From Candidatus Saccharimonadia bacterium (GTDB taxonomy: Bacteria; Patescibacteriota; Saccharimonadia; UBA4664): DNA of 64,000 nt. Numbering within the stretch: position 1 is the stretch's first letter; each line of letters starts with the position of its first letter. The notes under the pieces were generated by a model. The model did not search any database and was not told the origin of the DNA. It saw only the letters and a program-made list of their open reading frames with translations. The stretch lies in assembly GCA_036488585.1 (NCBI GenBank), contig DASXHH010000009.1, positions 366-64,365 on the forward strand, written 5' to 3'. The position numbers and the translations under genes were made by a program. This document shows positions 2,129 to 39,545 of this stretch, in pieces.

Positions 2129-2464
2129 CTAATAGGACGGCTTCGGAGCTCCAGTGGTAATATCGCACACCGATGAGTGGTTGCCCAAGCAAGCATTTAG
2201 CTTATTGATTTCGTATTGGTTGTATAGCCAAGCCTGCGAGGCTCCAGCGTTCGTAATGTCCTGATTATGAATAGTGGTGAAAAGAACGTAGTTAGTGAAT
2301 ATGAGACATAAAGCTAGGAGGCCAATGATGACGTCCCGAAGGTTGAGTTTATATTTTCGTTTTAACATAAATGCATTATACACTTTTAAGCATAAGAACA
2401 TTGGTGCGCCACACTTCCCAATTCTGGAACCATTTGTTGATAGCTTGCTGCGAGTCGACGTCAA
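2129..2464 (-). CDS. small hydrophobic hypothetical protein in an AT-rich (foreign-looking) segment
   Basis: ORF in a low-GC patch with one TM segment (IIGLLALCLIFTNYVLFTTI). It overlaps the tRNA-flank repeat copy at 2388-2409. The coding call is weak. Confidence 0.25.
   Translation of the reverse strand: MTSTRSKLSTNGSRIGKCGAPMFLCLKVYNAFMLKRKYKLNLRDVIIGLLALCLIFTNYVLFTTIHNQDITNAGASQAWLYNQYEINKLNACLGNHSSVCDITTGAPKPSY
2388..2409. repeat. 22-nt direct repeat of the tRNA-Leu 3'-flank/3'-end (aagcataagaacattggtgcgc), identical to 5085-5106
   Basis: Exact match by eye to the sequence spanning the tRNA-Leu 3' end. Confidence 0.7.
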
Positions 2465-2694
2465 GATAACGAAACTCGGCTTAGTTTACGAAGTCGATCA
2501 AGTTGTTGCCCGCCCGCTGGACGGAGATCCGGTCAAAAATGAACCACCTGAATGCTCAAACTCTTTGCTTAAGCGCTCGGGTGGTGCCGTCCTGGACACC
2601 ACGGGCGCTGTGTTGCACCGTGATGTCCAGGACTGGTACGCCGTTTCGACCCCCCGCAGGGATCGGCCCGAACGGCGACGGGCCGAGTTGTGGA

Positions 2695-3051
2695 TCAGTC
2701 GTGCTGATCCGGTCCGGGGCCGGGGGCCGGCGTGATGTACTCCGGCTCGGCCGGGAGCAGGACGCGCCCGGCTTCCTCGTTCAGGCGGCTCGCCACGAGT
2801 TCGGCCACGACGTTGACGTCGTTGTAGACGTCGTCGCCGGGGATCTCGAGCGATCCGAGGTTGAAGGCGAGCATGCCGTTGCGGCCGACATGGAAGTCGG
2901 CGCTCAGGAGTTCACCCGACGCCCGGAGGCGAGCAAGGACGTCCTCGAGGACGTCCCAGTCCCGCTCATCGGATGTGACCACGCCGGCCAGGTAGGTCGA
3001 ATCGTGGTCCCACTCGACGGTGAACGGGTTGGGGTTGGCGCTAACGGTCAT
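2695..3051 (-). CDS. hypothetical acidic protein (118 aa)
   Basis: ORF with good codon periodicity in GC-rich DNA, lying between two tRNA-fragment repeats. No recognisable domain. Confidence 0.45.
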   Translation of the reverse strand: MTVSANPNPFTVEWDHDSTYLAGVVTSDERDWDVLEDVLARLRASGELLSADFHVGRNGMLAFNLGSLEIPGDDVYNDVNVVAELVASRLNEEAGRVLLPAEPEYITPAPGPGPDQHD

Positions 3052-3117
3052 GACCTCTCCTTGGTATCGACAACCGTGCGTTGCTTATTATACCTTGTTT
3101 CGTATCTGGCGTCAAGT

Positions 3118-3140
3118 TGCGCGAGAGAGGAGTCGAACCT
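3118..3140. repeat. 23-nt direct repeat of the tRNA-Leu 3' half (tgcgcgagagaggagtcgaacct), identical to 5102-5124; att-like remnant
   Basis: Exact match to the acceptor-stem and T-arm 3' strand of the tRNA-Leu gene at 5099-5184. Confidence 0.8.
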
Positions 3141-3222
3141 TTTTCCAGATATAAAATTTCGAAAACACAAAAGGCGCCCAAACTGGGACTCTTCTTATTT
3201 TTAGATCTAAATTGGTGCGCGA

Positions 3223-3235
3223 GGGGTATTTAGAT
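3223..3235. repeat. 13-nt partial copy (attggtgcgcgag) of the tRNA-Leu 3' end and flank (matches 5097-5109)
   Basis: Short exact match. On its own it could be chance, but it is the third such copy within 1 kb. Confidence 0.4.
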
Positions 3236-3402
3236 GGAACTCTTTATGCCATGACATCTTGAGTTTGGGCAAGAAATTGACAGAACTGGGGTTGGGTATG
3301 ACAGGCGAAAAGTTGTTCTAACGATCTCGGATCCCTGTTGTACACTAAGCGTAAGCCTTGTGAGGGCTTGGAGAATACAAAAAATTAACAGGGGGACAAA
3401 AA

Positions 3403-8984: not shown

Positions 8985-10076
8985 CTAAAATTGGCGCTGG
9001 ATGCAAAAGTTAGCCAGTTCGGTAAGGCGGGAGCGAGCGTCTCGGCCGAGACCGGCTTTAGACAGAGCCTGAAGGCTGGTTTTGAGGAACGACTCGGCTA
9101 GTTCCTGAGTTTTTTGGGGCGCGCCAGTGGCCCGCAGCAGCTCTCGTACCGCCTCAAGCTCGGCGGTGCCGGCGTTGCGATGACCCCAGAGCAGGCCAAG
9201 CTCACGCTTTTGAGCGGAGGTGGCAGCTGCAAGCGCGAAGTGGATGAGCACGGTGCGCTTGCCTTCTTGAAGGTCTGAGAGCACCGGCTTACCGAGCGCC
9301 TCCTCACGGCCAAATACGCCGAGCAGGTCGTCGGTAAGCTGGAAGGCCACGCCGAGGGCCTGGCCAAAGATGGCCAGCTCTCGTTGGGTGCTCTTGGTGG
9401 CGCCGGCAAGCTCTGCACCCACCAAAAGCGGTACTTCGAAGCTGTAGCAGGCGGTTTTGTAGCGGCAGACCCGCAGCAGGGTCTCGAGAGCGGGCGGGCT
9501 GATGGTCGGAAGGGCTGCAGCCACATCGGCGAGCTGGCCGCCCATCTCCTCAAACAGCATGCGCTGAACATGAGCCGCGGCGGCCAGTTTGCGCTCGGCC
9601 GGGAACGGCGCCGTGAGGATGGCCTCGAGTCCGAGGGCCATGGTGGCGTTGCCGGCGAGGAGGGCAAAAGACGAGGCCTGGTGCCAGGCTTCATCGGATT
9701 CGAGCCCCTGCTCCACAAAGCGGCGATGGTACACGCCTAGCACGTTGGGGCGACCATGACGGATGGTGTCGCGGTCGATAATATCGTCGTGAATGAGCAG
9801 AAAATTATGGAACAACTCCTGAGAGATGGCCGCTTGCAATGCCGGCTCGCGCTCGCTACCACCACAACCCTCATAGGCGGTCAGCATGATATACGGCCGC
9901 AAGCGCTTCCCACTGCCGAGCGCCTGATCACGCACCACCCCGAGCAGCTCGGCGTAACCGGGGTCGATTGGATGGGCCCGAGCAATGGCCGATTTGAGCA
10001 GGCGGCTCAGGTGCTCGTCAACCTGGGCCTTAAAGCCCCGCGGCATGACTTGGGGTTGGTCAGTTAAGTGCGGCAT
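8985..10076 (-). CDS. short-chain trans-polyprenyl diphosphate synthase (FPP/GGPP synthase-like)
   Basis: First Asp-rich motif FLLIHDDIIDRDTIRHGRP (aromatic at -5) and second motif FQLTDDLLGVFG. Start set at ATG 10076 (MPHLT...); the upstream 57 codons of the raw ORF look non-coding. Confidence 0.8.
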   Translation of the reverse strand: MPHLTDQPQVMPRGFKAQVDEHLSRLLKSAIARAHPIDPGYAELLGVVRDQALGSGKRLRPYIMLTAYEGCGGSEREPALQAAISQELFHNFLLIHDDIIDRDTIRHGRPNVLGVYHRRFVEQGLESDEAWHQASSFALLAGNATMALGLEAILTAPFPAERKLAAAAHVQRMLFEEMGGQLADVAAALPTISPPALETLLRVCRYKTACYSFEVPLLVGAELAGATKSTQRELAIFGQALGVAFQLTDDLLGVFGREEALGKPVLSDLQEGKRTVLIHFALAAATSAQKRELGLLWGHRNAGTAELEAVRELLRATGAPQKTQELAESFLKTSLQALSKAGLGRDARSRLTELANFCIQRQF

Positions 10077-10164: not shown

Positions 10165-10833
10165 ATGCGAATTTTATTGGTTGAGGACGATAGGACCGTC
10201 GCCGAGACTCTCACCGAGGCTCTTGGCTGGTATTTCGTGGTCGACAATGCCTATAGTGGCTCTGAGACACTCGAAATGCTGTTTCAACATGCTTATGACC
10301 TAATAATCTTAGACTACACCCTGCCCGACATCCAGGCGCCACTGCTATACGAGCAGATCCGCAGTATCGACCAGACCGTGAAAGTGCTATTGGTAACGGG
10401 CAATGACAACGTGGAAGACAAGATTAAGATGTTGGACGCTGGAGCCGATGACTACGTGATAAAGCCGTTCGAGATCCGGGAGCTGCGTGCCCGCATCCGG
10501 GCGGTGCTGCGCCGAGGCAACCAACGGCCGGGGTCGTCGTTGATAGTGCTCGACGACCTGCAGGTGGACGTGGCGGGCCGGACGGTGAGACGCCGGGGCA
10601 TTGAGATCAAGCTGCAGCGCAAGGATTTCGATATCCTAGAGTACCTGTTGCGCAACCAAGGTCGGGTAGTGACGCGCGAGATGATTTTGAACCACGTCTG
10701 GACCAACCATAAAGAAAGTTCTGGCAATCTGGTGGACGTGCATATTAAGAAGATTCGCGACCAGATAGACAAACCATTCCAGCACCCGCTGATTCACACC
10801 GTGCCGGGAGTGGGTTATAAAATCGACACCTAG
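10165..10833 (+). CDS. two-component response regulator, OmpR/PhoB family (REC + winged helix)
   Basis: MRILLVEDD, DLIILDYTLPD and DYVIKPF in the receiver domain, with a C-terminal Trans_reg_C-like wing. AGGAGAG Shine-Dalgarno precedes ATG 10165. Confidence 0.9.
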   Translation: MRILLVEDDRTVAETLTEALGWYFVVDNAYSGSETLEMLFQHAYDLIILDYTLPDIQAPLLYEQIRSIDQTVKVLLVTGNDNVEDKIKMLDAGADDYVIKPFEIRELRARIRAVLRRGNQRPGSSLIVLDDLQVDVAGRTVRRRGIEIKLQRKDFDILEYLLRNQGRVVTREMILNHVWTNHKESSGNLVDVHIKKIRDQIDKPFQHPLIHTVPGVGYKIDT

Positions 10834-10881
10834 CAGCCGTGAGGCTTACAGGGTGAATTTAAACGAAAGGAGGTGATATGA

Positions 10882-10995
10882 ATGAGCGAAGTGATTAAGA
10901 AGGCCTTAACCGACAAGAGCGCCCGTAATACGGAAGCGCTCCGGGCGGTGGCCACCAAGGAGGTCGCGTCCCCCTGGGGCAGCGTTGACGTCTAA
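10882..10995 (+). CDS. 37-aa hydrophilic peptide (MSEVIKKALTDKSARNTEALRAVATKEVASPWGSVDV) with strong SD and its own terminator, lying between the RR and HK genes
   Basis: AAGGAGGTGA sits 8 nt upstream of the ATG. The ORF ends 4 nt before a textbook terminator. A 6-codon ORF (ATG 10878) precedes it. Confidence 0.4.
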   Translation: MSEVIKKALTDKSARNTEALRAVATKEVASPWGSVDV

Positions 10996-11001
10996 ATAAG
11001 C

Positions 11002-11031
11002 AGACTGGGCGCGGCTCCGCCCAGTCTTTTA
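11002..11031 (+). terminator. rho-independent terminator (AGACTGGGCG-loop-GCCCAGTCT-TTTT)
   Basis: Perfect 9-10 bp GC stem followed by a T-run. Confidence 0.8.
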
Positions 11032-11083: not shown

Positions 11084-12466
11084 ATGCTTTCCCGACTAAT
11101 CGAACGCACATATAAGCTATTCATTAAACCAAAAACGGCCGATGCCGAACAGCGGCGACAAGAGTTTATTCTAAACATTATTCTGACCGGCTCGTTTGTG
11201 CTGTCGCTGGTGGCACTGTTTGTGGTGATTTTGAATCTGGCGGCTGAGAGGGTGTCGTACACCGGCGAATCTCCGGGAATGGCAGTAGTGAGCGTGGCGC
11301 TATTCGGCGGGCTGCTGGCGATTTCCCGCGGCGGTCGGTTTAAGGTTTCGGGCTACACGATTGTGGCACTGTATTTAATGATGGCCTTTTATACCCTGTT
11401 CCGCTGGGGAATTTCGCTGGCGGAAGGCGTGCTACTGATGGCGCTGGTGCTGGTACTGGCCTGGATTTTGCTGGGGACAATCGGCGGCGTGGCGGCCACG
11501 GCTTTGGCGATGGGCGGGCTGATCGTGTTGGGTTACCTGCAGCAGGAACATTTAGTACATTTTGATTCGAGCTGGATGAAGACGCCCGGCAATATGAGCG
11601 ACGGAGTGACATTTTCGCTGACGTTGTGGGTGATTACTATTGTGTCTTGGCTAAGCAACCATGAAACCGAGCGCTCGCGGCGACGGGCGCAACGCAGTGA
11701 AGAGGAGCTGAGGCGGCAGCGCGACTTGCTCGAGGAGAAGGTGCGCGAGCGGACCCGGGAGTTGGAGATAGCCCAGCATGAGCAGCTTATGCAGATGTCG
11801 AAATTCGCGGAGTTCGGTCGGCTGACCTCGGGCATCGTACACGAACTGGTGTCGCCGTTAATGGCGGTGAGCGCCAACCTGCAGCAGATGAACAACCGGA
11901 CCGCCTCCGATAAGCTGCGCCGGGCCTTGGAGGGAACCAAGCGCATGGAGCGCTACATTCTGGCAGCCCGCAAACAGCTGCAGAACCAAGCCGAGGAAGC
12001 GGAATTTTCGGTCAGCCACGAAATTGAATCGGTGGTGGATTTTCTGGCGCCGTTGGCCAAAAAGCAACAGGTGAAAATTGAGTTTATAAAACTGGGCGAG
12101 CCGGAGCTGCGGGGTAGCGCCATTAAATTGCACCAGATAATGACCAACTTGGTATCGAACGCGTTGGACGCCTACGGAACGGCTGAAGTGGCGAGCCAAA
12201 AGCGGGTGGTGGTGGAGCTGGTACGGGCTGATAGCAATGTAATGATACGGGTGCAGGATTGGGGCACCGGAATAGCGGCGGAAAACTTAGACAAGATCTT
12301 TGAGCCGTTTTATACCACCAAGAGCTCCGACCAGGGGATGGGGTTGGGCTTGTCTTTGGTGAAGGAATACGTGGAGCAAGGGTTTGGCGGCGCAATCTCG
12401 GTGACCAGTGACGATGTAAACGGCACAGTGTTTGCGCTCAGACTGCCAATAAAACGAGCGGGCTAG
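11084..12466 (+). CDS. sensor histidine kinase (multi-TM sensor, HisKA + HATPase_c)
   Basis: N-terminal TM helices, H-box GIVHELVSPL, N-box LHQIMTNLVSNALDA, G-boxes DWGTGI and GMGLGLSLV. Confidence 0.9.
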   Translation: MLSRLIERTYKLFIKPKTADAEQRRQEFILNIILTGSFVLSLVALFVVILNLAAERVSYTGESPGMAVVSVALFGGLLAISRGGRFKVSGYTIVALYLMMAFYTLFRWGISLAEGVLLMALVLVLAWILLGTIGGVAATALAMGGLIVLGYLQQEHLVHFDSSWMKTPGNMSDGVTFSLTLWVITIVSWLSNHETERSRRRAQRSEEELRRQRDLLEEKVRERTRELEIAQHEQLMQMSKFAEFGRLTSGIVHELVSPLMAVSANLQQMNNRTASDKLRRALEGTKRMERYILAARKQLQNQAEEAEFSVSHEIESVVDFLAPLAKKQQVKIEFIKLGEPELRGSAIKLHQIMTNLVSNALDAYGTAEVASQKRVVVELVRADSNVMIRVQDWGTGIAAENLDKIFEPFYTTKSSDQGMGLGLSLVKEYVEQGFGGAISVTSDDVNGTVFALRLPIKRAG

Positions 12467-12496
12467 AATTTGGATCAGCGGCGTCGGAGGGAGCTG

Positions 12497-14422
12497 ATGC
12501 ATCGAGTGGCAGAGGAACAGCAACCGGAGGGATGGTTTACTAGTTGGTCGGCGCCAGAAGGTACAACACCTGGTCTGGGGGATGCGCGCCACGCTACCAC
12601 CTTTTTTACGTCCCTGGTGGCGGTCGCGCTGGCGGAGGTGGACGAACCCGAGGCGGAGGTGGTTCGACAACAGTCGGTGGACTGGCTGCTTGGGGAGCGC
12701 GGATCGCAGTGGTCGTTTAACTACTGGGCGCGCGGATCGGAAGAAGCCGCCGCTCTCCCCTACCCCGACGACTGGGACGACACCAGCTGCGCACTGGCGG
12801 CAATAATGCGGCTGCGGCCAGAGGCGGTGAGCGGTGGGGCGTTAGCAGCCATGGTGAATCTGCTCACCGCCACCGAGGTAGCCGAAGGCGGCCCCTACCG
12901 CACCTGGATGGTGAATGCGGAAGCTGGGCCCGAATGGCAGGACGTGGATGTGGCGGTGAATAGTAACATCGCCTATATGTTGAGCCTGCAGAAGGTAGAA
13001 TTACCGAGCTTGTCGGGATTGATAGAGCGGGCGATTGAGGCGAACGAGCTGCGGTCGCCGTATTACCCCACGAGCTACCCGCTAGTGTATTTTGCGTCGC
13101 GATGGTATCGGGGATCGGAAGCGGCGCGCTTGAGGGAATGGCTGAAGTTGCGCAAACGAAACGGCTGGTGGGGCGACCCGCTGCGGACCGCTCTAGCAAT
13201 AACCGCTAGCCTTAACCTGGGGGCGCGCCCGGAGGAGGTGGCGACGCCACTGGCAGTGCTGGCCGGACGGCCACTTGAGAGCTTAGCCCGGGCCTACCCC
13301 TTTTGCTATGATCCGGAGGCGGGCGGGCAACACTACGTAGCAGGGGCGTCGGCCCTGACCACCGCCCTAGTGTTGGAGGCGGACGCCAAGTACGAGCGGG
13401 CTGTGGCGACGACGGGGCGAGACAAGGCGGAGCACGGCGGGCGTGAGGCGGAGTCCGACCGGATTCACGAGCAGGTAGTGAGCCGAGTGCGAGAACGACT
13501 GAATGTTGCCGGGCCCGACCTGGCGGGGTCAGCCAGCTACATCATCGACCGGGTCACGCGGGATGATCCGGCACGGCAGGTAACGCTTCTACCCTGGGTG
13601 TTTCGGCGAGCACTGGGCGAGGCTGGCGAGACGGTTACGGACGAGCGGTTAGTGCTGCTGGGCGCCTTGAGCTTGTTGGGCTGGATGGCCTACACGATTT
13701 ACGACGATTTTCTCGATAACGAGGGTGAGCCCAAGCTACTGCCACTAGCTAACCTGGCCCTGCGCGAAGTGGTGGTGGCCTTCAATTCCGATACGGCCGG
13801 ATCTGGCCTGATGGCAATGGTGGTGCTCGACCTGATGGACGCGGCCAACGCCTGGGAGGTAAACCACTGCCGGGTGGCCAGCCAGGGCGAGCTACTGCGG
13901 GTGGCGCCGCCGGATTATGGCAATTTGGGCCGGCTGGCCGAACGGTCGATGGGTCACGCGCTCGGGGCTATGGTGATGATGTTGGATCTGGGGTATGGGG
14001 CTGACTCACGGGAGGTGGGCGCGGTGGAGGAGTTTTTCCGTCATTATTTAATTGCGCGACAACTCAACGATGAGGCTCACGACTGGAAACCGGACCTTCA
14101 AAGCGGCCATATCAACGCCGTCGGAGCGCGGCTGCTGGCGGCAGTGAGCAACCGCGGAGACAGCGTGGAACGGCTGTACGACGGGCTCGAGCAGGTGTTT
14201 TGGGAACAAGAGATCGGGCCGGTCTGTGAGCGGGTACTAGAGGAGTTAACGCTGGCGCGGGCGGCGCTGGCGCGGGCCGATGTGTCTCGTCCCGAGGAGC
14301 TGGAGGTGCTGCTCGAGCCAGTAGCTGCAGCCGCCCACCGGGCCCTAGAGGGGCAACGTCAAACATTGGATTTTTTGCAGGCCTATCGAGATAAAACCGG
14401 AAACGGTGGAAAAATACAGTAA
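12497..14422 (+). CDS. two-domain terpene-synthase-like protein: N-terminal alpha/alpha-toroid repeats (prenyltransferase/squalene-oxidase-type) + C-terminal alpha-helical isoprenoid-synthase-like domain with DDxxD
   Basis: N-terminal half has repeated helical-hairpin motifs (VDWLLGERGSQWSF; PYPDDWDDTSCALAAIMRL, which is DxDDT(A/S)-like; NGWWGDP). C-terminal half has IYDDFLD (DDxxD) and about 120 aa later QLNDEAHD (degenerate second Asp-rich/NSE-like motif). GGAGGGAG Shine-Dalgarno precedes ATG 12497. The domain assignment rests on motifs only. Confidence 0.45.
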   Translation: MHRVAEEQQPEGWFTSWSAPEGTTPGLGDARHATTFFTSLVAVALAEVDEPEAEVVRQQSVDWLLGERGSQWSFNYWARGSEEAAALPYPDDWDDTSCALAAIMRLRPEAVSGGALAAMVNLLTATEVAEGGPYRTWMVNAEAGPEWQDVDVAVNSNIAYMLSLQKVELPSLSGLIERAIEANELRSPYYPTSYPLVYFASRWYRGSEAARLREWLKLRKRNGWWGDPLRTALAITASLNLGARPEEVATPLAVLAGRPLESLARAYPFCYDPEAGGQHYVAGASALTTALVLEADAKYERAVATTGRDKAEHGGREAESDRIHEQVVSRVRERLNVAGPDLAGSASYIIDRVTRDDPARQVTLLPWVFRRALGEAGETVTDERLVLLGALSLLGWMAYTIYDDFLDNEGEPKLLPLANLALREVVVAFNSDTAGSGLMAMVVLDLMDAANAWEVNHCRVASQGELLRVAPPDYGNLGRLAERSMGHALGAMVMMLDLGYGADSREVGAVEEFFRHYLIARQLNDEAHDWKPDLQSGHINAVGARLLAAVSNRGDSVERLYDGLEQVFWEQEIGPVCERVLEELTLARAALARADVSRPEELEVLLEPVAAAAHRALEGQRQTLDFLQAYRDKTGNGGKIQ

Positions 14423-14448
14423 CGCGGCCGTGTTACGATTAAGCATTA

Positions 14449-15242
14449 TGAAGAAACTGAAACTGCTGGCCTACACATTGAGCCTAGCCGGAATGCTTGC
14501 AGCGGCGCCGGTGCTAGCGGCCAAACCAGCGGGAGCCGGCAAAATCGGCCCCGGCCTGGGCATGGACGTGTCTTATCCGCAATGCGGCAAGAGCCTACCG
14601 ACGACTCCGGCGTTTGCAGTGGTGGGCGTGAACGGGGGCGTGGCTAACAATTTCAACCGTTGTTTTAGCTCGGAGCTGACCTGGGCCGAGGGTGCCAGTG
14701 GTGGCACACAGCAGCCGAAGGTGTCAGTGTACGTAAACACCGGCAACCCCGGCGACGTGTTGGCCCAATACAATCTGGCCGATTGGCCGACCAGCACCAA
14801 CCCGGCCGATCCGTACGGCTCATGCATGGGCGTGTGGACCGATGACTTGGCCTGCTCTTGGGAGTACGGCTATGAGCGGGCGCAAGGCGATGTGGGTTAC
14901 GCCGGCAGTGGTGCGCGCAGATGGTGGCTGGACGTTGAGACTTCCAACAGCTGGACTATCGATGCCGCCAAAAATCGTGCAGCGCTCGAGGGCATGGTGT
15001 ATGGGCTGACTGAGGCCGGCGGCACGGTGGGGCTGTACTCCACGGCTGGTGCCTGGTCTAGCGTTGCAGGTGCCGTGCCCATGGCCAGTCCGCTGTACGC
15101 GTTGCCGGAGTGGCGACCGGGCGCCGAAACCCAGCGCCAGGCACAAAGCAATTGCAGCCTCTCCCCTCTTACTGGCGGTGGTCACATCACGCTCACACAA
15201 TACACCACCACGCTCGATTACGATTACAGCTGCATTAACTAA
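14449..15242 (+). CDS. secreted glycoside hydrolase-like protein (GH25/DUF1906-like TIM barrel), signal peptide
   Basis: Signal peptide MKKLKLLAYTLSLAGMLAAAPVLAA. GMDVSYPQCG... resembles the N-terminal catalytic strand of GH25 and Rv2525c-like proteins. Function uncertain. Confidence 0.5.
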
Positions 15243-16777
15243 GACGTAGTCATGTCGTCGGAAACGGGAGCTGGGTCGGCTGGTGACTCAACCGGGGCGC
15301 TACTGTGACCCAGGTGCTCCTTCACCACGGCGGCTTTAGCCGGGCCAATGGCGGCCGCTACCTCCTCCTGGGTGGCCTGCCGCACGCCGCGCACCGACCC
15401 GAAGCGCCGGATGAGCGTTTTGCGGGTGGCCGGGCCGATCCCGGGTATGGCATCGAGCAGGCTCTGGGTTTGGCGTTTGCCGCGTAGGATCGACTGGTAG
15501 GTAATGGCAAAACGGTGGGCTTCGTCACGCACCCGTTGCAGAAGTTTGAGCACATGGCTGGAGGGCGGTAGCAGGATGGTTTCGAAATCCTGGTTGGTGG
15601 TGACCCAAGCCTCGTCTTCGTAATGGCCCGGGTCAACCACGCGCGACTCTGGCCGGCGGCGAATTATTTCCTCCTCGCGCTTAGCCAGGCCGATAGCCGG
15701 AATGCCGAGCCCCATGGCATCGAGCACGCTGAGCGCGGCTGCCAGCTGACCCTTGCCGCCGTCAATCAGTAGCAGGTCGGGTTTGGGCCATTCTTCGAGG
15801 TGTTTGGGGCCGAAGCGGCGAGCGAGTACCTCGCGCATGTGGGCGAAATCATCGTTGCCGGCGAGGTGCATTTTGAAGCGGCGGTACTCGTCACGGTTGG
15901 GCACACCGTCCGAAAACACCACCATGCTGGCGACATTATCGGTGCCGCCGAGGTGTGAGATGTCGTAGGCCTCGATGCGACGAGGAATGCCCTTGAGCTC
16001 CAGCCGCTCGGACAGGCCGGTGAGCGCTTGGTCGCGGGTGAGGTCGAAGGCCTCTTTGTCGCCGAATACCATTTGCTTGCCAAACGCGCGTAGGTCGGCC
16101 AGCTGGTCGCGGCGGCGAGCGGCCTCTTCGTAGTGCTTGCGCCCCGCGAGTTGGGCCATTTCACGCTCAAGCTGGTCCATGAGCTTGGTCTGTTCGCCTT
16201 TTAGATAAAGTTCTAGCTTGCGAATGTTCTTGCGGTAATCGGCTACAGTGATCGCGCCTTCTTCCGGCCCCGGACACAGCCCCAGGTGGTATTGCAGGCA
16301 GCCGCGGGCGGGCCATTTGTCGTGTGTGACATACGGAAACACTTTGCGCAACATGCGCATGGCCCGGCGCAGAGCATCACTGGAAGTAAACGGTCCGTAG
16401 TAATGAGCCTTATCATCCAAGGGCCGGCGGACGTATGACACCACCGGAAATTCCTCCGCACTGATCTTCACATAAATGAAGTTTTTCTCGTCTTTCCAAT
16501 CGATGTTGTATTTGGGCTTGTAACGCTTTATGAACTCAGATTCCAGGAACAGCGCTTCGGCCTCACTGCCAGCGATGATCCATTCAGTGTCCGCAATTTC
16601 GGCCACTAGCAGCCGGGTCTTGGGGTCCTTGCGGCCATTCTGGAAGTAACTCATGACACGGTTTTTGAGCACGGCGGCTTTGCCGATGTAAATAATCTTT
16701 TTGTCGGCATCGCGATGGAAATACACACCAGGTTCGGCGGGTAGGGTTTTGAGTTTGGCTTTTAGAGCGTCGGTCAT
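15239..16777 (-). CDS. uvrC: excinuclease ABC subunit C
   Basis: N-terminal GIY-YIG (GVYFHRDADKKIIYIGKA...), UvrBC-interaction region, and C-terminal HhH (AIPGIGPATRKTLIRRFGSV). Confidence 0.9.
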   Translation of the reverse strand: MTDALKAKLKTLPAEPGVYFHRDADKKIIYIGKAAVLKNRVMSYFQNGRKDPKTRLLVAEIADTEWIIAGSEAEALFLESEFIKRYKPKYNIDWKDEKNFIYVKISAEEFPVVSYVRRPLDDKAHYYGPFTSSDALRRAMRMLRKVFPYVTHDKWPARGCLQYHLGLCPGPEEGAITVADYRKNIRKLELYLKGEQTKLMDQLEREMAQLAGRKHYEEAARRRDQLADLRAFGKQMVFGDKEAFDLTRDQALTGLSERLELKGIPRRIEAYDISHLGGTDNVASMVVFSDGVPNRDEYRRFKMHLAGNDDFAHMREVLARRFGPKHLEEWPKPDLLLIDGGKGQLAAALSVLDAMGLGIPAIGLAKREEEIIRRRPESRVVDPGHYEDEAWVTTNQDFETILLPPSSHVLKLLQRVRDEAHRFAITYQSILRGKRQTQSLLDAIPGIGPATRKTLIRRFGSVRGVRQATQEEVAAAIGPAKAAVVKEHLGHSSAPVESPADPAPVSDDMTTS

Positions 16778-17775: not shown

Positions 17776-20640
17776 CTAGACGCGGGAGGGGGTTTTGGAG
17801 GTAGCAGGGGCGGACTTGGTGCCAGCCTCGAAGATGCGCTTGAGGTAGTGGCCGGTGTGGCTTTCGGCCACCCGCGCCACCTGCTCGGGCGTGCCTTGAG
17901 CGATAATCTGGCCGCCGCCGGAGCCGCCCTCTGGGCCCATGTCGATCAGCCAATCGGACGATTTGATGACGTCGAGGTTGTGCTCGATGATGAGCACCGA
18001 GTTGCCGGTGTCGACCAAGGCGTTTAGCACATGCAGTAGGCGGTTGACGTCCTCGAAGTGGAGGCCGGTGGTGGGCTCGTCGAGGATGTAGAGGGTGCGA
18101 CCGGTACTGCGGCGGGCCAGCTCGGTGGCCAGCTTGATACGCTGAGCCTCGCCACCGGAGAAGGTGGTGGCGGATTGGCCGAGGTGGATGTAGCCGAGGC
18201 CAACCTCGTTGAGCGTGGCAAATTTGCGGCGGATGGCGGGGATGTTCTCGAAGAACTTCACGGCCTCTTCCACGGTCATATCGAGCACGTCCGAGATGCT
18301 CTTGCCCTTGTATAGGATTTCCAGGGCTTCTCGGTTGTAACGCTTGCCCTTGCACTCTTCGCAGGTGACATAAACGTCGGGCAGGAAATGCATTTCGATC
18401 TTGATGATGCCGTCGCCACGGCAGAGCTCGCAGCGACCGCCTTTAACGTTGAAGCTAAAGCGGCCGGCCTTGTAGCCGCGGATTTTGGCCTCGGGGGTTT
18501 GGGCAAACAGCTCGCGGATGTCGGTGAAGACGCCGGTGTAGGTGGCGGGGTTAGAGCGCGGGGTGCGGCCGATGGGCGACTGGTCGACGGAGATGACCTT
18601 GTCGAGGTTTTTGAGGCCCTGGATTTCATCGTGACGCCCGGGTAGGTCACCGGCGCGGTGATATACCTGAGCTAGCTTTTTGGCCAGAATGTCGTTTACG
18701 AGGCTAGACTTGCCGGAGCCGGACACGCCGGTGACGGATACAAGCATGCCGAGCGGAATGCTGACGTCGACACCCTGGAGATTGTGCTCGCGGGCGTTCT
18801 TGACAATGAGTGATTTGCGGTTGCCGGTGCGTCGCTTGGCGGGAACGGGGATGGCTTTGGTGCCGCGCAGGTACTGGCCGGTGAGGCTATCTTCGACGGC
18901 GGCGACCTCGTCGGGGGTACCGGCGGCCACAACTTTGCCACCGTGCTCGCCGGCGGCAGGGCCGATATCGATGACATAGTCGGCCATGCGAATGGTGTCC
19001 TCGTCGTGCTCTACCACAATGACGGTGTTACCGAGGTCACGGAGGCGGCAGAGGGTGGCGATGAGGCGGTCGTTGTCGCGTTGGTGGAGGCCAATGCTGG
19101 GCTCGTCCAGGATGTAGAGCACGCCCATGAGGCTAGAGCCGATCTGGGTGGCCAGCCGGATGCGCTGAGCCTCGCCACCGGCCAGGGTGTTGGCGGAACG
19201 GTCGAGGGTGAGGTACTCGAGGCCGACGTCCTTGAGGAAGTCGAGACGAGCGCAAATTTCTTTGAGGATCTGGCGAGCAATTTGGGCCTCACGCGGACCG
19301 AGGTCGAGGGATTCGAACAGCTTGGTGGCCTCGCCAATGGAGAGCTGAGTCAGGTCAACGATGGACTTGCCGCCGACCGTCACGGCCAGAATTTCGGGCT
19401 TGAGGCGTTTGCCATGGCAGACCGGGCATTCGCGCTCGGCCATGTATTTCTCGATTTCTTTGCGGACAAAATCGGAGTCGGTTTCGTGGTAACGACGCTC
19501 CATGTTGGGTATCACACCCTCATAGGTGGTGCGGTAGGTGCGGCCGCCGGGACCACGCATGGAGATTTCGGTGTCACCAGCGCCGTAGAGCACCACACGC
19601 AGGTCGGCAGGTTTCATTTCGGAGACCGGGGCGTCGAGGGAGAAGCCGAAGGATTTGGCCACCCCTTCGAGCAACTTGACATACCAGTTCATGCGGCTGG
19701 TGGTCTTGGCCCACGGACGGATGGCGCCTTCGGACAGCGTAAGGCGGCGGTTGGGGATGACCAGCTCAGGGTCAACTTCGAGGCGGGATCCCAGGCCGGT
19801 GCAGTGCGGGCAGGCGCCGTGCGGCGAGTTGAAGGAGAAGTTGCGCGGGGCGATGTCGGGCAGCGATACCTCCCGGTGGACCGGACAGGCGTAATGCTCG
19901 GAATAGACCTGCTCCAACCCGGTGTCGGCTTGGAGCACCTTCACGATGCCGTCGCCGAGGTTTAAGGCCTGCTCGAGCGATTCAGTGAGGCGCTGGCGAA
20001 TTTCGAGGTCAACGGCCACGCGGTCGGCCACGGCCTCCACGGTATGCTTCTTTTGTTTGTCGAGTGCCGGAAATTCATCGATGCTGGTGATGGTTCCATC
20101 CACGCGCACGCGGGTGAAGCCGGCCTTTTTGAGTTCGGCCACCACGCCGCGGTGCTCACCTTTTTTGTCGTCGATAACGGGCGCCAGCAGCATAATACGA
20201 GTGCCTGCTGGCAATTCGAGGATTTGGTCGACGATTTGGGCGGGGGTTTGGCGAGTCACTTCGCGGCCGCAAATTGGGCAGTGCGGCACGCCCACCCGCG
20301 CGTAGAGCAGACGGAGGTAGTCGTACACCTCGGTGACGGTGCCGACGGTGGAGCGGGGATTGCGAGAGCTGGATTTTTGGTCGATAGAGATGGCGGGGCT
20401 AAGGCCGTCGATTTGGTCGACGTCGGGTTTCTCCATGAGGCCGAGGAATTGGCGGGCGTAGGCCGAGAGCGACTCCACGTAACGGCGTTGACCTTCCGCG
20501 TAGATGGTGTCGAATGCGAGCGATGATTTGCCGGAGCCGGACAGACCGGTGATTACTACAAGTTGGTCGCGCGGAATCTCGACATCAATGTTCTTGAGAT
20601 TATGTTCTCGCGCACCGCGCACTACGATCTTGTCTGTCAT
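17776..20640 (-). CDS. uvrA: excinuclease ABC subunit A
   Basis: Two ABC ATPase modules ([14 protein letters not shown]; [14 protein letters not shown]), zinc-finger CxxC motifs, and two signature motifs ([16 protein letters not shown]). Start at MTDKIVV with a GGGGAGG Shine-Dalgarno. Confidence 0.95.
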
Positions 20641-20767
20641 AGGCCTCCCCACCCCGAGCCAGAGCTCGGTATTACGAGGTGGAATTGTACACAAAAATTG
20701 CACGTTTGGCAATCCTGAAAGGCGCCAAAAGACACCGCTAGCAAGGTAGCGGCAATTGGCTATTTTC

Positions 20768-24610: not shown

Positions 24611-26614
24611 CTAGCGACCGCGGACGGCTTTGCGAGGCTTGCGGGTAGCAGTACCGCCGAGCTCTTCGATCTGATCGCGCAAAGCTGCGGCTTTTTCGAA
24701 CTGGAGGTTTTCGGCGGCCATTTGCATCTGCTGAGTGAGCTCGGCGATGAGACGACCCCGCTCTTCTTTGGGAATGTCCTCGGGATGAATATCTTTAACG
24801 TCGGCTTTTTCGGCGGCTTCGGCGGTGCGCATACGCTCTCCCATCGCCTTCTTGATGCCTTCCGGTGTAATGCCGTGCTCTCGGTTGTAGGCCTCCTGGA
24901 TCTGCCGGCGGTGAGTGGTGGTGTCGATGGCCACACGCATGGCCGCGGTAGTGCGGTCGGCGTACATAATGACACGGCCCTCCACGTGGCGAGCGGCGCG
25001 GCCGATGGTCTGGATAAGGGCCGCTTCGCCGCGCAGGAAGCCTTCTTTGTCGGCGTCGAGGATGGCCACAAGCGACACCTCGGGCAGGTCGAGGCCCTCT
25101 CGCAAAAGGTTAATACCCACCAGCACGTCATACACGCCGGCGCGTAGGTCTTGCAAAATGTCGACACGGTCGAGGGTGTTGACCTCGGAATGCAGGTACT
25201 GGACCTTGATGCCGAGCTCCTGGAGGTACTCGGTGAGATCCTCGGACATGCGCTTGGTGAGGGTGGTAACGAGCACGCGCTGGCCCTTAGCGATGGTGGC
25301 GCGGATCTCGGCGATGAGGTCGTCGACCTGACCGCGTACCGGCCGCACGTCGATGGCCGGGTCGAGCAGGCCGGTGGGCCGGATTACTTGCTCTACCACC
25401 TGCGAGCTACGTGACAGCTCTAATTCGGCCGGTGTGGCCGACACGTAGACGGCTTGGTTGAGGTGGCGGTCGAATTCGGCGAACTTGAGCGGCCGGTTGT
25501 CGAGTGCGCTGGGCAAGCGGAAGCCGTATTCCACTAGGGTCTCCTTGCGGGCGCGATCGCCGTTGTACATGCCGCGCACCTGGGGCAAGGTGATGTGAGA
25601 TTCATCCACGAACAGCAGGAAGTCGTCGGGGAAGTAGTCGAGCAAGGTGGCGGGCTGTTCACCGGGCTCGCGTTCGGACAGGAAGCGGGAGTAGTTTTCG
25701 ATACCAGGTACCATGCCGGTCTCTTGGAGCATTTCCATATCGAACTTGGTGCGCTGCTTGAGGCGCTGGGCTTCAAGGTTTTTGCCGGCGGCTTCGAGCT
25801 GGAGTAGGCGGGCGTCGAGTTCCTCGCCGATCTTGGCGACGGCGCGCTGCAATTTTTCCTGGGGAGTGACGTAATGTTTGGCGGGAAAAACCTTAAGCTC
25901 GGAGCGGTCCTCTCCCACCTCGCCGGTGAGCGGGTCGACCGGACGGATGCGCTCAAGCTCGTCGCCAAAGAATTCCAGACGGTAGGCCTGCTCTTCGCCA
26001 ATCGGCCAGACGTCTACAACATCGCCGCGCACGCGGAATTTGCCGCGGGTGAAGTCGATGTCGTTGCGCTGATACTGGATGTCGGTAAGATGGCGGATCA
26101 TTTTGTCACGGAGGCGGGTTTGGCCTACCTTCACGTCGACGGTCATGGTGGTGTAGTCGGAAACGTTGCCGAGTCCGTAGATACAGCTCACAGAAGCCAC
26201 GATCAACACATCGCGACGCGTAAGCAGGCTCATGGTAGCGGCGTGGCGCAAGCGGTCGATTTCCTCGTTGATGGAACTGTCTTTCTCGATAAACGTGTCG
26301 GAGCGCGGAATGTAGGCCTCGGGTTGGTAGTAATCGTAATAACTCACAAAATATTGAACGGCATTGTCCGGGAAAAACTGCTTGAACTCGCCATAAAGCT
26401 GGGCGGCCAAGGTTTTGTTGTGGGACAGCACCAGAGTGGGCCGCTGAAGCTCTTGCACGATGTTGGCCATGGTGAAGGTCTTGCCGGAACCGGTCACACC
26501 CAAGAGAGTTTGCTCGCGATCGCCATGCTTAAGCCCGGCCACCAGCTGCTCGATGGCTTTGGGCTGGTCGCCGGCGGGGGCATAGTTGCTAACAAGTCTA
26601 AACTTTTGGTTCAT
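24611..26614 (-). CDS. uvrB: excinuclease ABC subunit B
   Basis: Helicase motifs ([16 protein letters not shown]), beta-hairpin region, and C-terminal UVR domain ([28 protein letters not shown]). Start at MNQKF. Confidence 0.95.
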
Positions 26615-26773
26615 TCGAGTAATTATAGCAGTTATTTGACATACCTGGTGATAAGTTTTATTCCAGTGCCAGATTGGGACAACACCCAATGTGCTGGCAA
26701 CTATGGACAAGTAGCGTGACCTCGGCACTAAGCCAAGAAGCAGCAAGCTTGAAAATTCGGAAGGAGCTGCCGC

Positions 26774-27601: not shown

Positions 27602-27612
27602 CATCAGGAAGG

Positions 27613-29058: not shown

Positions 29059-29249
29059 GTGAAGGGGCAATGATTGGCGAAGCGGCGGCATAGAAACTGC
29101 CGCTTCGCCAACACTTTTTTGTAATTATTTCCAAATATACACCCCGCGGGCGTTGGTACGATGACGCCACCGTTTTCGGCAATAGCTCATTGAGAATATG
29201 GCAAAAAACAACCTTGGGACGATCGTCCCCACTTGCCCCCGGAGGCAAA

Positions 29250-35339: not shown

Positions 35340-35620
35340 CATGGCGAAACTGGGCCGGGGTGCAATTTTTGCCCCCGGCTCGGCCCCTCAGTCAATTGCT
35401 TGGGGGTATGAACGATTTTTGCGCAAAGGTGCGCTATTTTTTTAGGACTTATAGAGATGAGTGACAGTCGTGAGTGGTTTAGGTTTTACACAAGCCGTTT
35501 TTTTCAGAAAAAAGGGGCTGGGTTCGGGCACCTTTCGGGTGCAGGGGGATCTTTCACAACCAAGAGCACATGCTGCTCGTATCGAATCGTGCAAGTGAAG
35601 CAACGAGGAAGAGGCAGACC

Positions 35621-37510: not shown

Positions 37511-37640
37511 ATGGCAAGACAAAGAGAAGAGCTCTAACCAACCAAAGCCACCCGGGTGCCTCGAGTGGCACCCATGCAGTTGCAAGAGAGCGGTCACGCT
37601 CTCTTGCAACTGCCAGTCAACTAGAACTTATTCATGAATA

Positions 37641-38309: not shown

Positions 38310-38324
38310 GGTAAAGCTATTATA

Positions 38325-39491: not shown

Positions 39492-39545
39492 AAAATGCCT
39501 ACGTTAATTGTACACAGTCTTTTTGCTGAGGTGTACCATGAGATC

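Follow-up and report, generated by a model that had tools for sequence, protein, structure and literature searches.

According to PMC13290415, all the characterised peptide prenyltransferases of the trans-isoprenyl diphosphate synthase (trans-IDS)-like type, namely ComQ, PalQ, and the P domain of ChrPC, target Trp. The same source describes ChrPC and NctPC (Hubrich et al., Chem 2024), in which a transferase is combined with an MstE-like cyclase and the Trp-bound prenyl group is cyclised. In ComQXPA and PalPXQ, a precursor and a histidine kinase accompany the transferase, and PalQ constitutes a separate sequence cluster in the isoprenoid synthase superfamily.

Here, a 64-kb stretch of DNA was analysed (the window, meaning this whole stretch), in which a gene for a 641-residue fusion enzyme follows genes for a response regulator, a small peptide, and a histidine kinase. 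While this kind of enzyme has been known since 2024, neither its CPR-wide family nor the ComX-like precursor nor the association with a two-component system appears to have been described; for CPR, Patescibacteria, or Saccharibacteria, a literature search on ComQXPA, ComX, and RiPP prenyltransferases found nothing relevant. The cassette has the appearance of a peptide-pheromone system that had so far gone unrecognised. The features of the locus are as follows.

8985-10046, - strand: short/medium-chain trans-isoprenyl diphosphate synthase (IDS) of 353 aa (PF00348, 150 bits; public call)
10165-10833, + strand: OmpR/PhoB-type response regulator with receiver and winged-helix domains, the first cassette gene (PF00072 and PF00486)
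10866-10876, + strand: perfect Shine-Dalgarno sequence AAAGGAGGTGA, 8 nt before the peptide ATG, read from the sequence
10882-10995, + strand: precursor peptide of 37 aa, MSEVIKKALTDKSARNTEALRAVATKEVASPWGSVDV (gene call in the public record)
11002-11027, + strand: GC-rich 10-bp hairpin followed by UUUUAU, directly 3' of the peptide stop codon (terminator scan)
11084-12466, + strand: histidine kinase of 460 aa, the proposed receptor (HATPase_c, 86.7 bits; weak HisKA)
12497-14422, + strand: enzyme gene (641 aa), with the ATG at 12497
12497-13411, + strand: N-terminal domain of the enzyme (residues 1-305), a predicted monodomain (beta-type) class II terpene cyclase
12764-12784, + strand: PDDWDDT, class II general-acid motif D92-x-D94-D95(-T96), invariant in 50/50 sequences
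13442-14401, + strand: C-terminal domain of the enzyme (residues ~316-635) with the trans-IDS-type isoprenoid-synthase alpha fold, a proposed peptide Trp prenyltransferase
13700-13717, + strand: YDDFLD, first Asp-rich motif (FARM-like DDxxD), the proposed Mg2+/diphosphate site
14060-14083, + strand: QLNDEAHD, Gln and second Asp-rich motif (SARM-like DDxxD)

The fusion enzyme and its two domains

The longest ORF at the enzyme gene extends from 12470 to 14422 on the + strand, and the frame opposite to it on the - strand contains many stops. A preliminary description of this DNA had claimed a two-domain protein of 641 residues and had quoted three motifs from it. The ORF and the two predicted folds bear this out, and all three motifs are in place. 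An AlphaFold2 model of high confidence (mean pLDDT 90.9, pTM 0.80; low confidence at the linker, residues 311-313) together with fold searches confirmed the two-domain architecture. An HMM search, which had been suggested as another check, yielded no Pfam or NCBIfam match for the enzyme at E <= 0.1. Thus, the family assignment was made from profiles and structure. A PDB sequence search with the single enzyme sequence returned noise only.

The enzyme family comprises 1,137 clusters at 50% identity (E <= 1e-30) and is found in 248 GTDB species genomes, being restricted to Patescibacteria-type genomes. Nearly all of the members are annotated as 'hypothetical'; one is named 'terpene cyclase/mutase family protein' in one database source, and three have a precomputed match to PF28380. 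In all full-length members, the cyclase occupies the N-terminal part and the transferase the C-terminal part. Among 50 family members, sub-threshold Pfam matches were found to TED_complement (25/50), SQHop_cyclase_C (14/50), and Prenyltrans (10/50), and PF13243/PF13249 are reached below the gathering score only. Residue invariance was counted in a 50-sequence alignment of homologs that are 36-75% identical to the window enzyme. D92, D94, D95, T96, D403, D407, Q522, D525, and D529 are each invariant (50/50), and the conservation of the enzyme motifs is far above chance.

From successive helical-hairpin repeats, one of them with DDWDDTS, an alpha/alpha-toroid had been suspected in the N-terminal half. 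It proved to be a class II-type alpha/alpha-barrel with a genuine DxDD acid motif. In the fold search, the N-domain is an (alpha/alpha)6-barrel beta domain closest to characterised class II cyclases, and the motif varies only as D92-(L/W/M)-D94-D95-T96, with the Asp and Thr positions kept in 50/50. With the family profile, residues 30-311 could be matched to the drimenol synthase AsDMS (E 1.3e-11), and in this alignment D94 falls on AsDMS D323, the experimentally assigned general acid (PMC12232559). Judging from profile and model, the N-domain is a class II terpene cyclase homolog, predicted to be of the monodomain type. In AsDMS, four residues including R368, R370, and R415 hold the (di)phosphate (PMC12232559). 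These three Arg residues correspond in the remote alignment to W147, D149, and P188 of the enzyme, W147 and D149 being conserved in 50/50 family members. The replacement argues that an AsDMS-like binding of prenyl diphosphate is unlikely in the N-domain. The same remote alignment suggests that prenyl transfer would come first and cyclisation second.

The C-terminal half had been described as alpha-helical with a DDxxD motif. The alpha fold was confirmed and is closest to trans-IDS enzymes in the fold search; in the FARM-like motif, Y402, D403, F405, and D407 are present in 50/50 and D404 in 48/50. QLNDEAHD, which had been taken for the second metal motif of class I terpene synthases, is indeed a second Asp-rich motif, but of the SARM type (Q-x-x-DDxxD) and not NSE/DTE. 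A motif of the form (N,D)Dxx(S,T)xxxE was not found in the C-domain, and no class I terpene cyclase is among its top structural neighbours; both results speak against a class I terpene cyclase. A canonical chain-elongating trans-IDS does not fit either, since both the PF00348 match and the IPP-binding basic motifs are missing. The C-domain has no conserved Lys and no GGKRxR-type first motif, and its FARM continues as DDFLDxEGxP, whereas the neighbouring true IDSs have LLIHDDxxD..RRG. PF00348 is absent from the families matched by at least two of the 50 members, and the window enzyme matches nothing at E <= 0.1.

According to the review PMC13290415, a conserved Gln just before the SARM and the first SARM Asp together serve indole-NH recognition in trans-IDS-like Trp prenyltransferases and in Ord1. 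The FARM, the Gln, and the first SARM Asp are all present here, as D403, D404, D407, Q522, and D525. Ordinary trans-IDS enzymes also carry a Gln before the SARM (the FQxxDD motif). Thus, Gln522 is consistent with, rather than diagnostic of, Trp recognition.

How close is the C-domain to ComQ? By hhalign, the comparison with an alignment of 12 authentic ComQ sequences was not significant (P = 0.23 over 19 columns), the sole local overlay being on the ComQ FARM, DIMDDLED. The comparison with the canonical IDS encoded nearby was marginal (P = 0.009), and ComQ and IDS matched each other with 98.8% probability. A PDB search with the C-domain profile alone returned noise only. Membership in the ComQ family (IPR033965) or in PF00348 was rejected on the non-significant and marginal hhalign scores. 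Since a sequence relation to ComQ was not detected, the label 'ComQ-like' rests on the fold, the motifs, and the context of the C-domain.

The linked peptide, kinase, and regulator genes

The four genes of the cassette are arranged in the window in the order response regulator, peptide, histidine kinase, and enzyme. Is this arrangement common? Linkage was counted at the 65 distinct loci that have enough upstream sequence (at least 2.6 kb). A homologous small ORF was found in 65/65 of these. A kinase homolog including the membrane region (E 1e-47 to 1e-108) was found in 64/65, lying within 400 nt of the enzyme gene in 59/64. A regulator homolog (E < 1e-20) was found in 56/65, in most cases on the same strand and some 1.5-1.7 kb upstream, and all four genes are together in 56/65 loci. 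The genes around the cassette vary between loci, and the linkage persists through rearrangement, with a divergent orientation in the Saccharimonadales subgroup. These results showed that the four-gene linkage is near-obligate across Patescibacteria. A downstream ORF of 278 aa (14406-15242) was rejected as a part of the cassette; its product is secreted, and just one further locus has a homolog.

The peptide MSEVIKKALTDKSARNTEALRAVATKEVASPWGSVDV, of which the window has one copy, begins with a conserved leader, continues with a variable middle, and has its only Trp (W32) five residues before the C-terminus. There is one precursor gene per locus. Among 70 unique peptides, which are 32-40 aa in length and ComX-like, the leader consensus is M..(I/L)KK.LTDKS.R, and the Trp is invariant (70/70), occurs exactly once in 68/70, and is preceded by Pro in 54/70. 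It is the sole invariant residue outside the leader, and it lies one to six residues before the C-terminus, always trailed by residues. A hydrophobic stretch precedes the Pro-Trp in 15/70 peptides, the other 55/70 not being hydrophobic there. A Sec signal peptide or a TM helix was therefore rejected as a general description of the peptide. A Pro at +1 disfavours signal peptidase I. The hydrophobic segment in the 15 peptides would also fit a membrane-embedded peptide.

An SD-like 4-6-mer is found before at least 42/71 peptide ORFs, for which the start-codon calls are approximate. The hairpin behind the peptide gene has a fold energy of -22.2 kcal/mol (z = -4.2), and is probably a leaky terminator or an mRNA stabiliser that would raise the precursor-to-enzyme ratio. 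A hairpin of comparable stability (z < -1.5) recurs behind the peptide ORF, but in 23/74 loci only, and a universal terminator at this position was rejected.

In the kinase, hydropathy indicates a membrane region (residues ~30-195) of about six TM helices, which are closely spaced and have short loops, and no large extracytoplasmic domain; the DHp and HATPase domains follow this region. The regulator ORF may also start at 10144; the public call is 10165. No dedicated exporter or protease gene was found in the 64-kb window. Across the loci, the precursor is not linked to any transporter, immunity, or protease gene, and no genes for the biosynthesis of an aromatic acceptor are linked to the cassette.

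A prenyl diphosphate synthase had been proposed as the partner of the enzyme. The IDS is real, having the canonical FARM context LLIHDDIIDxD..R.G, and it recurs, but it is a minority neighbour; a homolog was found in 15/81 loci and is absent from 66/81. It lies directly downstream of the enzyme gene on the same strand in 11/15 of these loci. In the closest relatives (L012 and L049), it is found directly upstream in divergent orientation, as it is divergent from the cassette in the window. The IDS is likely to supply the prenyl-diphosphate donor. The conserved partner of the enzyme is the regulator-peptide-kinase cassette and not the polyprenyl synthase.

Proposed function and alternative readings

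It is fairly probable that the enzyme is a bifunctional maturase, that it acts on the 37-aa peptide whose gene lies two places upstream, and that it belongs to a ComQXPA-like pheromone circuit. The C-domain would bind and ionise an allylic prenyl diphosphate via YDDFxD and Mg2+. The donor is probably of C15-C20 length and would come from the polyprenyl synthase that often adjoins the cassette. The prenyl cation would be moved onto the indole of the single conserved Trp of the peptide, which the invariant Gln522/Asp525 pair may position. Then, the middle Asp of the N-domain motif (D94 of D92-x-D94-D95) might protonate the distal C=C bond of the peptide-bound prenyl chain, which would fold into a cyclic terpenoid on the Trp. 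Removal of the leader and export may be carried out by host functions, leaving a short Trp-terpenoid peptide. This would be sensed by the adjacent six-TM histidine kinase, which would phosphorylate the OmpR-type regulator. The cassette would thus be a functional analogue of Bacillus ComQXPA centred on a ChrPC-like prenyltransferase-cyclase fusion.

The peptide, kinase, and regulator partners favour a peptide (RiPP) substrate and signalling over a free terpene or a membrane-lipid cyclase. On the other hand, autoinduced antimicrobial RiPPs typically have a linked two-component system as well, which leaves the pheromone role a proposal. With the same enzyme chemistry, the product might be an antimicrobial, host-directed, or membrane-anchoring lipopeptide, and the two-component system might only control its production or act in immunity-type sensing, as NisRK is the regulator and immunity-type sensor for nisin. 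Two-component systems are common beside the precursors in autoinduced bacteriocin clusters, cyclic isoprenoid RiPPs have been discussed in the literature as membrane-binding, CPR bacteria are episymbionts that need to interact with host membranes, and the hydrophobic segment in 15/70 peptides would suit such a product. However, each locus has a single short precursor without linked transporter, immunity, or protease genes, the minimal unit of regulator, peptide, kinase, and enzyme follows the exact logic of ComQXPA, and the sensor region of the kinase is purely membrane-embedded, which is still compatible with a dual role. A lipopeptide of this kind in place of a pheromone is rather unlikely.

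What if the substrate is not a peptide? The preliminary description had envisaged a novel isoprenoid or a surrogate of membrane-lipid cyclases, whereas the genomic partners point to a peptide substrate and signalling. A stand-alone class II/class I terpene synthase that converts FPP or GGPP, made by the neighbouring synthase, into a free cyclic terpenoid or a hopanoid-like lipid would account for the intact DxDD motif, the alpha-fold domain with two Asp-rich motifs, the presence of a polyprenyl synthase close by in 15/81 loci as well as in the window, and the name given to one family member. Nevertheless, it is improbable. The C-domain has neither NSE/DTE nor a class I cyclase among its top structural neighbours, the diphosphate-binding Arg residues of AsDMS are replaced in the cyclase domain, and the IDS is missing in 66/81 loci while the Trp peptide and the kinase are essentially always there. 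It also gives no reason for the invariant Trp in a co-inherited ORF of 37 aa.

It is very improbable that the small ORF encodes an MgrB/SafA-like kinase regulator while the enzyme modifies a non-peptide aromatic acceptor, quinone-like or benzoate-type, to make an MstE-like meroterpenoid. In most of the peptides (55/70), the stretch before the Trp is not hydrophobic, and their sole invariant non-leader residue is a Trp near the free C-terminus, the acceptor in every characterised trans-IDS-like peptide prenyltransferase; moreover, linked genes for an aromatic acceptor are lacking. Extremely improbable is a C-domain that elongates chains to feed the fused cyclase and yield a cyclic prenyl diphosphate, as in the fungal prenyltransferase-cyclase fusion PvCPS, with the ORF encoding an unrelated kinase accessory peptide, since there is no PF00348 match, conserved Lys, GGKRxR-type motif, or RRG, a separate canonical IDS often encoded right beside the enzyme gene would make this activity redundant, and the invariant Trp would be left unexplained.

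If the reading of a peptide maturase in a pheromone circuit is extended to the whole family, Patescibacteria (CPR) may own a native, widespread peptide quorum-sensing or cell-cell signalling system, with a cyclised-terpenoid-Trp pheromone, one fusion enzyme, and an intramembrane kinase. I put this forward tentatively, with somewhat more doubt than confidence. CPR bacteria make up a large share of bacterial diversity and have tiny genomes and an obligately episymbiotic life, and how they sense kin or hosts is poorly understood. If true, these ultra-small episymbionts would gain their first defined signalling system, and a cyclic terpene would for the first time be seen as the modification of a pheromone. 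It would extend the cyclic-terpenoid RiPPs, a recent discovery, to a new and very compact precursor class and to a new, highly divergent prenyltransferase family, and it would be relevant to peptide lipidation biocatalysis. The cassette offers a testable hypothesis, with the genes for ligand, enzyme, receptor, and regulator within 4.3 kb; thus, heterologous reconstitution without culturing should be possible.

Comparison with known prenylation and signalling systems

The preliminary description had regarded a beta-alpha fusion as unusual for bacteria. It is unusual, but not unprecedented, because the peptide fusions ChrPC and NctPC have been described since 2024, according to PMC13290415. Compared by that description, they share with the present enzyme, as interpreted here, a single polypeptide that joins a peptide-Trp prenyltransferase to an MstE-like class II cyclase. 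As far as the same account of ChrPC goes, a trans-IDS-like transferase, a Trp acceptor in a ribosomal precursor, and a cyclase acting after transfer are also the features proposed here. Both predicted domains of such a fusion maturase and an adjacent Trp-containing precursor are present in the cassette. A difference from ChrPC and NctPC is that the cassette here includes a two-component system, made up of histidine kinase and response regulator, and that its precursor is a ComX-like peptide of 32-40 aa. The precursors in the study of Hubrich et al. are reportedly of the proteusin, Nif11, and lasso types.

Among the cyclases, AsDMS (PDB 9mhs/9m7d) is likewise of the monodomain class II type, but its fusion partner is a HAD phosphatase, while the partner here is a proposed transferase. 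AsDMS has a DxDT motif and acts on free FPP, whereas the present enzyme has DxDD and is proposed to act on a peptide-bound prenyl chain. MstE and related monodomain class II cyclases (6sbb, 6ij1, 8paj/8pak) stand alone without a transferase domain, unlike the fused enzyme here, and their substrates are small-molecule meroterpenoids. Among the transferases, Ord1 (PDB 9v4g/9v4i) is a trans-IDS-like farnesyltransferase that accepts free tryptophan and lacks a cyclase domain; in the PDB searches, no sequence similarity between Ord1 and the C-domain profile was detectable.

The Paenibacillus PalP-PalX-PalQ system likewise has a histidine kinase, a Trp precursor, and a trans-IDS-like prenyltransferase. 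However, PalQ lacks a cyclase domain, and the Trp of PalX, a precursor of the NHLP type, is strictly C-terminal, whereas one to six residues follow the Trp in the peptides found here.

Bacillus ComQXPA has a Trp-modifying DDxxD enzyme of the isoprenoid-synthase fold, a multi-TM kinase, a regulator, and a short precursor in which a leader is combined with a Trp near the C-terminus, and it works without a dedicated exporter or protease. The modifying enzyme, the Trp precursor, the membrane kinase, and the regulator of such a gene set are all present in the cassette, where their roles are assigned by analogy, and the window has no dedicated exporter or protease either. Homology to ComQ, ComP, and ComA was not found. 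ComQ is a clear relative of PF00348, lacks the SARM and a cyclase domain, and leaves ComX with a linear geranyl or farnesyl group; the C-domain here is not such a relative, has an invariant DDxxD in this place, and is joined to a cyclase. ComA is a NarL/LuxR-type regulator, unlike the OmpR-type regulator (PF00486) of the cassette, and Pfam and NCBIfam revealed no ComP-specific signature in the kinase. The gene order also differs, being regulator, X, kinase, and Q here and Q-X-P-A in Bacillus. Given the OmpR-type regulator, the lack of a ComP signature, and a C-domain that is not ComQ-like in sequence, the circuit is analogous and not homologous to ComQXPA. If the proposed function is true, the ComQXPA logic, in which a pheromone with a prenylated Trp is paired with a two-component system, arose independently outside the Firmicutes.

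The enzyme and its two domains

The enzyme gene is an intact ORF of 641 codons (12497-14422, +), with the opposite strand closed by stops. A search of 5.8 billion proteins returned 562 homologs, nearly all of them full length (~640-670 aa), without annotation, and from Patescibacteria/CPR assemblies. Since the homologs align from residue 4-8 onward, the form starting at the ATG at 12497 is correct; the public (JGI) call is 601 aa long and starts 40 codons downstream, at 12617. The N-terminus of the window enzyme and its closest relatives is ~13 residues shorter than in most family members. The relatives closest in enzyme sequence, at about 50% identity, carry the label Saccharimonadales.

The preliminary description proposed a beta-alpha terpene synthase and picked out three motifs, each of which was found at its quoted place:

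12764-12784, +, PDDWDDT
13700-13717, +, YDDFLD
14060-14083, +, QLNDEAHD

In an alignment of 50 homologs with 36-75% identity to the query enzyme (A1), residues P90, D92, D94, D95, T96, Y402, D403, F405, D407, Q522, D525, D529, and D533 are each present in 50/50 sequences. Thus, the ORF and the motifs are real, and the absolute conservation goes beyond chance. The AlphaFold2 model built from A1 has a mean pLDDT of 90.9 and a pTM of 0.80, and residues 311-313 are its sole disordered internal stretch. This model and the fold searches agree with the proposed beta-alpha architecture, which is correct. The two parts are as follows:

about residues 1-305, N-terminal domain, predicted monodomain class II cyclase
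about residues 316-635, C-terminal domain, trans-IDS-like alpha fold (IDS, isoprenyl diphosphate synthase), candidate Trp prenyltransferase

The HMM search suggested for the protein is negative on its face, since the enzyme has no match at E <= 0.1 in Pfam and NCBIfam. A very recent Pfam family, PF28380, may already cover part of the enzyme family; the protein database holds a precomputed match to it for three members (P0005, P0026, and P0068).

In the fold search with the N-terminal domain, class II cyclases rank above glycosidase (alpha/alpha)6 barrels (17.5 at most for the latter), and Foldseek agrees. The A1 profile matches the cyclase domain of the drimenol synthase AsDMS over residues 30-311 with an E-value of 1.3e-11, and the family motif PYPDDLDDT overlays FPDDLDTT of AsDMS. 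D323 of AsDMS is assigned in its structure paper as the general acid, the 'middle' Asp of DxDD (PMC12232559). By this overlay, D94 of the enzyme aligns with D323. All computational tests for a monodomain class II cyclase gave a positive result, and the N-terminal domain is a predicted class II cyclase of the beta-only type.

The C-terminal domain had been taken for the alpha domain of a class I synthase. This assignment did not hold: the second Asp-rich motif (SARM) departs from the NSE/DTE pattern of class I enzymes, and no class I terpene cyclase is found among the top 60 structural neighbours. The domain retains the first Asp-rich motif (FARM, YDDFxD) and a Gln-preceded SARM (Q-L-N-D-D-A-H-D). 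It lacks the IPP-binding hallmarks of IDSs, having no conserved Lys and having xEGxP after the FARM; the true IDSs neighbouring enzyme genes have LLIHDDxxD..RRG. Its sequence is very divergent, with no match in Pfam and, for a domain-only profile, none in the PDB. When compared profile to profile, the domain scored P = 0.23 with aligned authentic ComQ proteins and P = 0.009 with the canonical IDSs whose genes adjoin enzyme genes, while ComQ and IDS matched each other with 98.8% probability. In summary, fold, motifs, and context are those of a trans-IDS-like Trp prenyltransferase, and sequence-level membership in the ComQ family and in PF00348 was negative. The alpha domain has the look of a trans-IDS-lineage transferase, not of a cyclase.

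Searched against 1.84 billion proteins, the C-terminal domain profile alone matches 1,620 cluster representatives (50% identity) with E <= 1e-3, of which 1,137 reach E <= 1e-30. All full-length proteins in the best 150 matches have the domain at their C-terminal end.

The cassette and its small peptide

The enzyme gene is the last of four genes, with an IDS gene on the other strand:

8985-10046, -, polyprenyl diphosphate synthase (IDS)
10165-10833, +, OmpR-type response regulator
10882-10995, +, 37-aa peptide
11084-12466, +, histidine kinase
12497-14422, +, enzyme

The small ORF, also called as a gene in the public annotation, encodes MSEVIKKALTDKSARNTEALRAVATKEVASPWGSVDV. A perfect Shine-Dalgarno sequence, AAAGGAGGTGA, lies 8 nt upstream, and a -22 kcal/mol hairpin with a U-tract (z = -4.2) lies between the ORF and the kinase gene.

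Is this arrangement common in other genomes? In all six distant members inspected on long contigs, a two-component system adjoins the enzyme gene, the flanking genes are otherwise unrelated, and gene callers put a 34-40-aa ORF between the response regulator and the kinase. Of 185,579 species genomes scanned, 248 encode an enzyme relative, and 80 loci were retrieved. They belong to Saccharibacteria, Microgenomates (Levy-, Davies-, Shapiro-, and Roizmanbacteria), Parcubacteria/Paceibacteria, Doudnabacteria, Moranbacteria, and CPR2. With an HMM that started from seven peptides and was later refined, a small ORF is recovered at a constant place, one kinase gene ahead of the enzyme. There are 81 distinct loci, 65 of which have at least 2.6 kb upstream.

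Occurrence of cassette genes
Peptide ORF: 65/65 loci with at least 2.6 kb upstream
Kinase homolog, including the membrane region: 64/65 such loci; 59 within 400 nt of the enzyme gene
OmpR-type regulator: 56/65 such loci
Polyprenyl synthase homolog: 15/81 loci; 11 immediately downstream on the same strand

The polyprenyl synthase, which the preliminary description linked to the enzyme, is a real partner, but these counts make it a secondary one. It is immediately upstream and divergent in the two closest relatives (L012 and L049). In a Saccharimonadales subgroup, the peptide-kinase pair is inverted while its linkage to the enzyme is kept.

The small ORFs of different loci are mutually homologous, with a single precursor gene per locus. 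The 70 unique peptides are 32-57 aa long (mean 37). They share an N-terminal leader, M-x-x-(I/L/V)-(I/L/M)-K-K-x-L-T-D-K-x-x-R, followed by a variable middle and an invariant Trp, which is the only Trp in 68/70. Pro precedes this Trp in 54/70, and just 1-6 variable residues follow it. The stretch before Pro-Trp is hydrophobic in only 15/70; thus, neither signal peptide nor TM helix describes these peptides in general. Its anatomy is that of a putative leader-core RiPP precursor resembling ComX, with the Trp as the single putative functional core residue. Two precursors end in Cys-Cys shortly after the Trp (L021 3341-3457, …GPWECC; L040 3303-3458, …HPWCC), which may point to a disulfide or a further modification in certain lineages.

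Several loci have features of their own. In L018 (~382-1419) and L034 (~2253-3299), a divergent IDS paralog (E ~1e-18 to the window IDS; FARM context SEDWLLIHDDxEDHSxERRH) replaces the response regulator upstream of the peptide gene. The Doudnabacteria contig CAVYGQ010000001.1 carries, ~3 kb upstream of the cassette (L001 3337-4712; same region in L015), a bAvd-like accessory gene and a reverse transcriptase (RVT_1) with phage-integrase genes nearby, together the signature of a diversity-generating retroelement. Many cassette contigs (L019, L021, L022, L024, L025, L030-L033, L068, L080, and others) carry non-CPR GenBank labels such as 'uncultured Gammaproteobacteria', 'Vitreimonas', 'Methylomirabilota', 'Sulfotelmatobacter', and 'Dormiibacterota'. 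They are probably mislabelled MAGs, an example being the 'Vitreimonas' contig, which is 1.4 Mb long; alternatively, the cassette, elsewhere restricted to CPR, is present outside CPR too.

In the window, the cassette is followed by a 278-aa ORF (264 aa in the public call). This ORF overlaps the enzyme stop codon, encodes a signal peptide at its N-terminus, MKKLKLLAYTLSLAGMLAAAPVLAAKPAG, and is without a match in Pfam or NCBIfam. As a homolog occurs in one other locus only (L052), it was rejected as a conserved cassette neighbour. The 12 kb downstream of the cassette hold all three uvr genes with unannotated ORFs among them, and are followed by a large cell-envelope glycan region and a compact central-carbon block:

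14406-15242, +, 278-aa ORF
15239-16777, -, uvrC
17776-20712, -, uvrA
24611-26746, -, uvrB
~26770-46120, glycan region: GT2 glycosyltransferases, PMT_2-type mannosyltransferase, GtrA-domain protein, GH71/GH99-like and metallophosphoesterase proteins, two polysaccharide deacetylases
39384-41527, ABC-2 exporter pair of the glycan region
54111-55097 and 55637-56509, both -, transketolase split into N- and C-terminal-half ORFs, adjoining ribulose-phosphate epimerase, GAPDH, and class II aldolase

No MEP- or mevalonate-pathway gene as a source of IPP/DMAPP for the IDS was seen within the 64-kb window. The G+C content of positions 1-64000 is 58.7%, which is unusually high for a Saccharimonadales-type genome.

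Predicted reaction and known peptide prenyltransferase systems

The terpene synthase reading survives as a two-domain fusion of a cyclase with an alpha domain, but the transferase-like C-terminal domain and the near-universal peptide partner speak against the rest of it. The enzyme is most likely a bifunctional cyclase-prenyltransferase, predicted to mature the adjacent ComX-like Trp peptide. The C-terminal domain would transfer a prenyl group to the peptide Trp, and the N-terminal domain would then cyclise the Trp-bound chain in a protonation-initiated reaction. The pairing of the enzyme with the 37-aa peptide is a prediction I regard as likely. The overall explanation, in which the adjacent two-component system senses the product, is put forward with moderate confidence, and the pheromone role on its own is tentative.

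In AsDMS, the (di)phosphate is clamped by R368, R370, R415, and Y416 where the cyclase pocket opens (PMC12232559). They align with W147 (50/50 in A1), D149 (50/50), P188 (42/50), and Y189 (49/50) of the family. If this remote alignment is right, the diphosphate clamp is lost while the acid motif is intact, as would fit a substrate without a diphosphate. Because of this loss and the precedents of ChrPC and MstE, prenyl transfer is placed before cyclisation. Position -5 before the FARM is Phe, Ala, Ser, or Gly in the neighbouring IDSs, residues that would be compatible with a donor chain of C15-C20 or longer.

The characterised trans-IDS-like peptide prenyltransferases (ComQ, PalQ, and the ChrPC P domain) all act on Trp (PMC10853753, PMC13290415). 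In these enzymes and Ord1, the Gln just upstream of the SARM and the first SARM Asp are implicated in indole recognition (PMC13290415); the enzyme shares this pair as the invariant Q522 and D525. In ChrPC and NctPC, a prenyltransferase is fused to a monodomain class II cyclase of the MstE-like kind, and this cyclase acts on the prenyl group once it is on Trp, closing it into a ring (PMC13290415). The present family is probably a further form of this fusion type, although the genome mining done for ChrPC may already have reached it. Among 8 million papers and preprints, none was found tying CPR, Patescibacteria, or Saccharibacteria to ComX, ComQXPA, or RiPP prenyltransferases.

In the Bacillus ComQXPA and Paenibacillus PalPXQ systems, a trans-IDS-like transferase is encoded beside a precursor and a histidine kinase (PMC10853753, PMC13290415). 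In the window kinase, about six TM helices follow closely on one another and a large extracellular domain is lacking, as expected if the receptor binds a lipidated peptide. Neither the window nor the other loci examined show an exporter, leader peptidase, or immunity gene linked to the cassette. In ComQXPA likewise, ComQ is the one dedicated maturation factor that is named, and the proteases cleaving the prenylated precursor are not known (PMC10853753, PMC13290415). The cassette would work like ComQXPA, as an analogue and not a homolog, since its regulator is OmpR-type and its kinase and transferase are unrelated. It unites the fusion idea of ChrPC and NctPC with the precursor-kinase idea of ComQXPA and PalPXQ.
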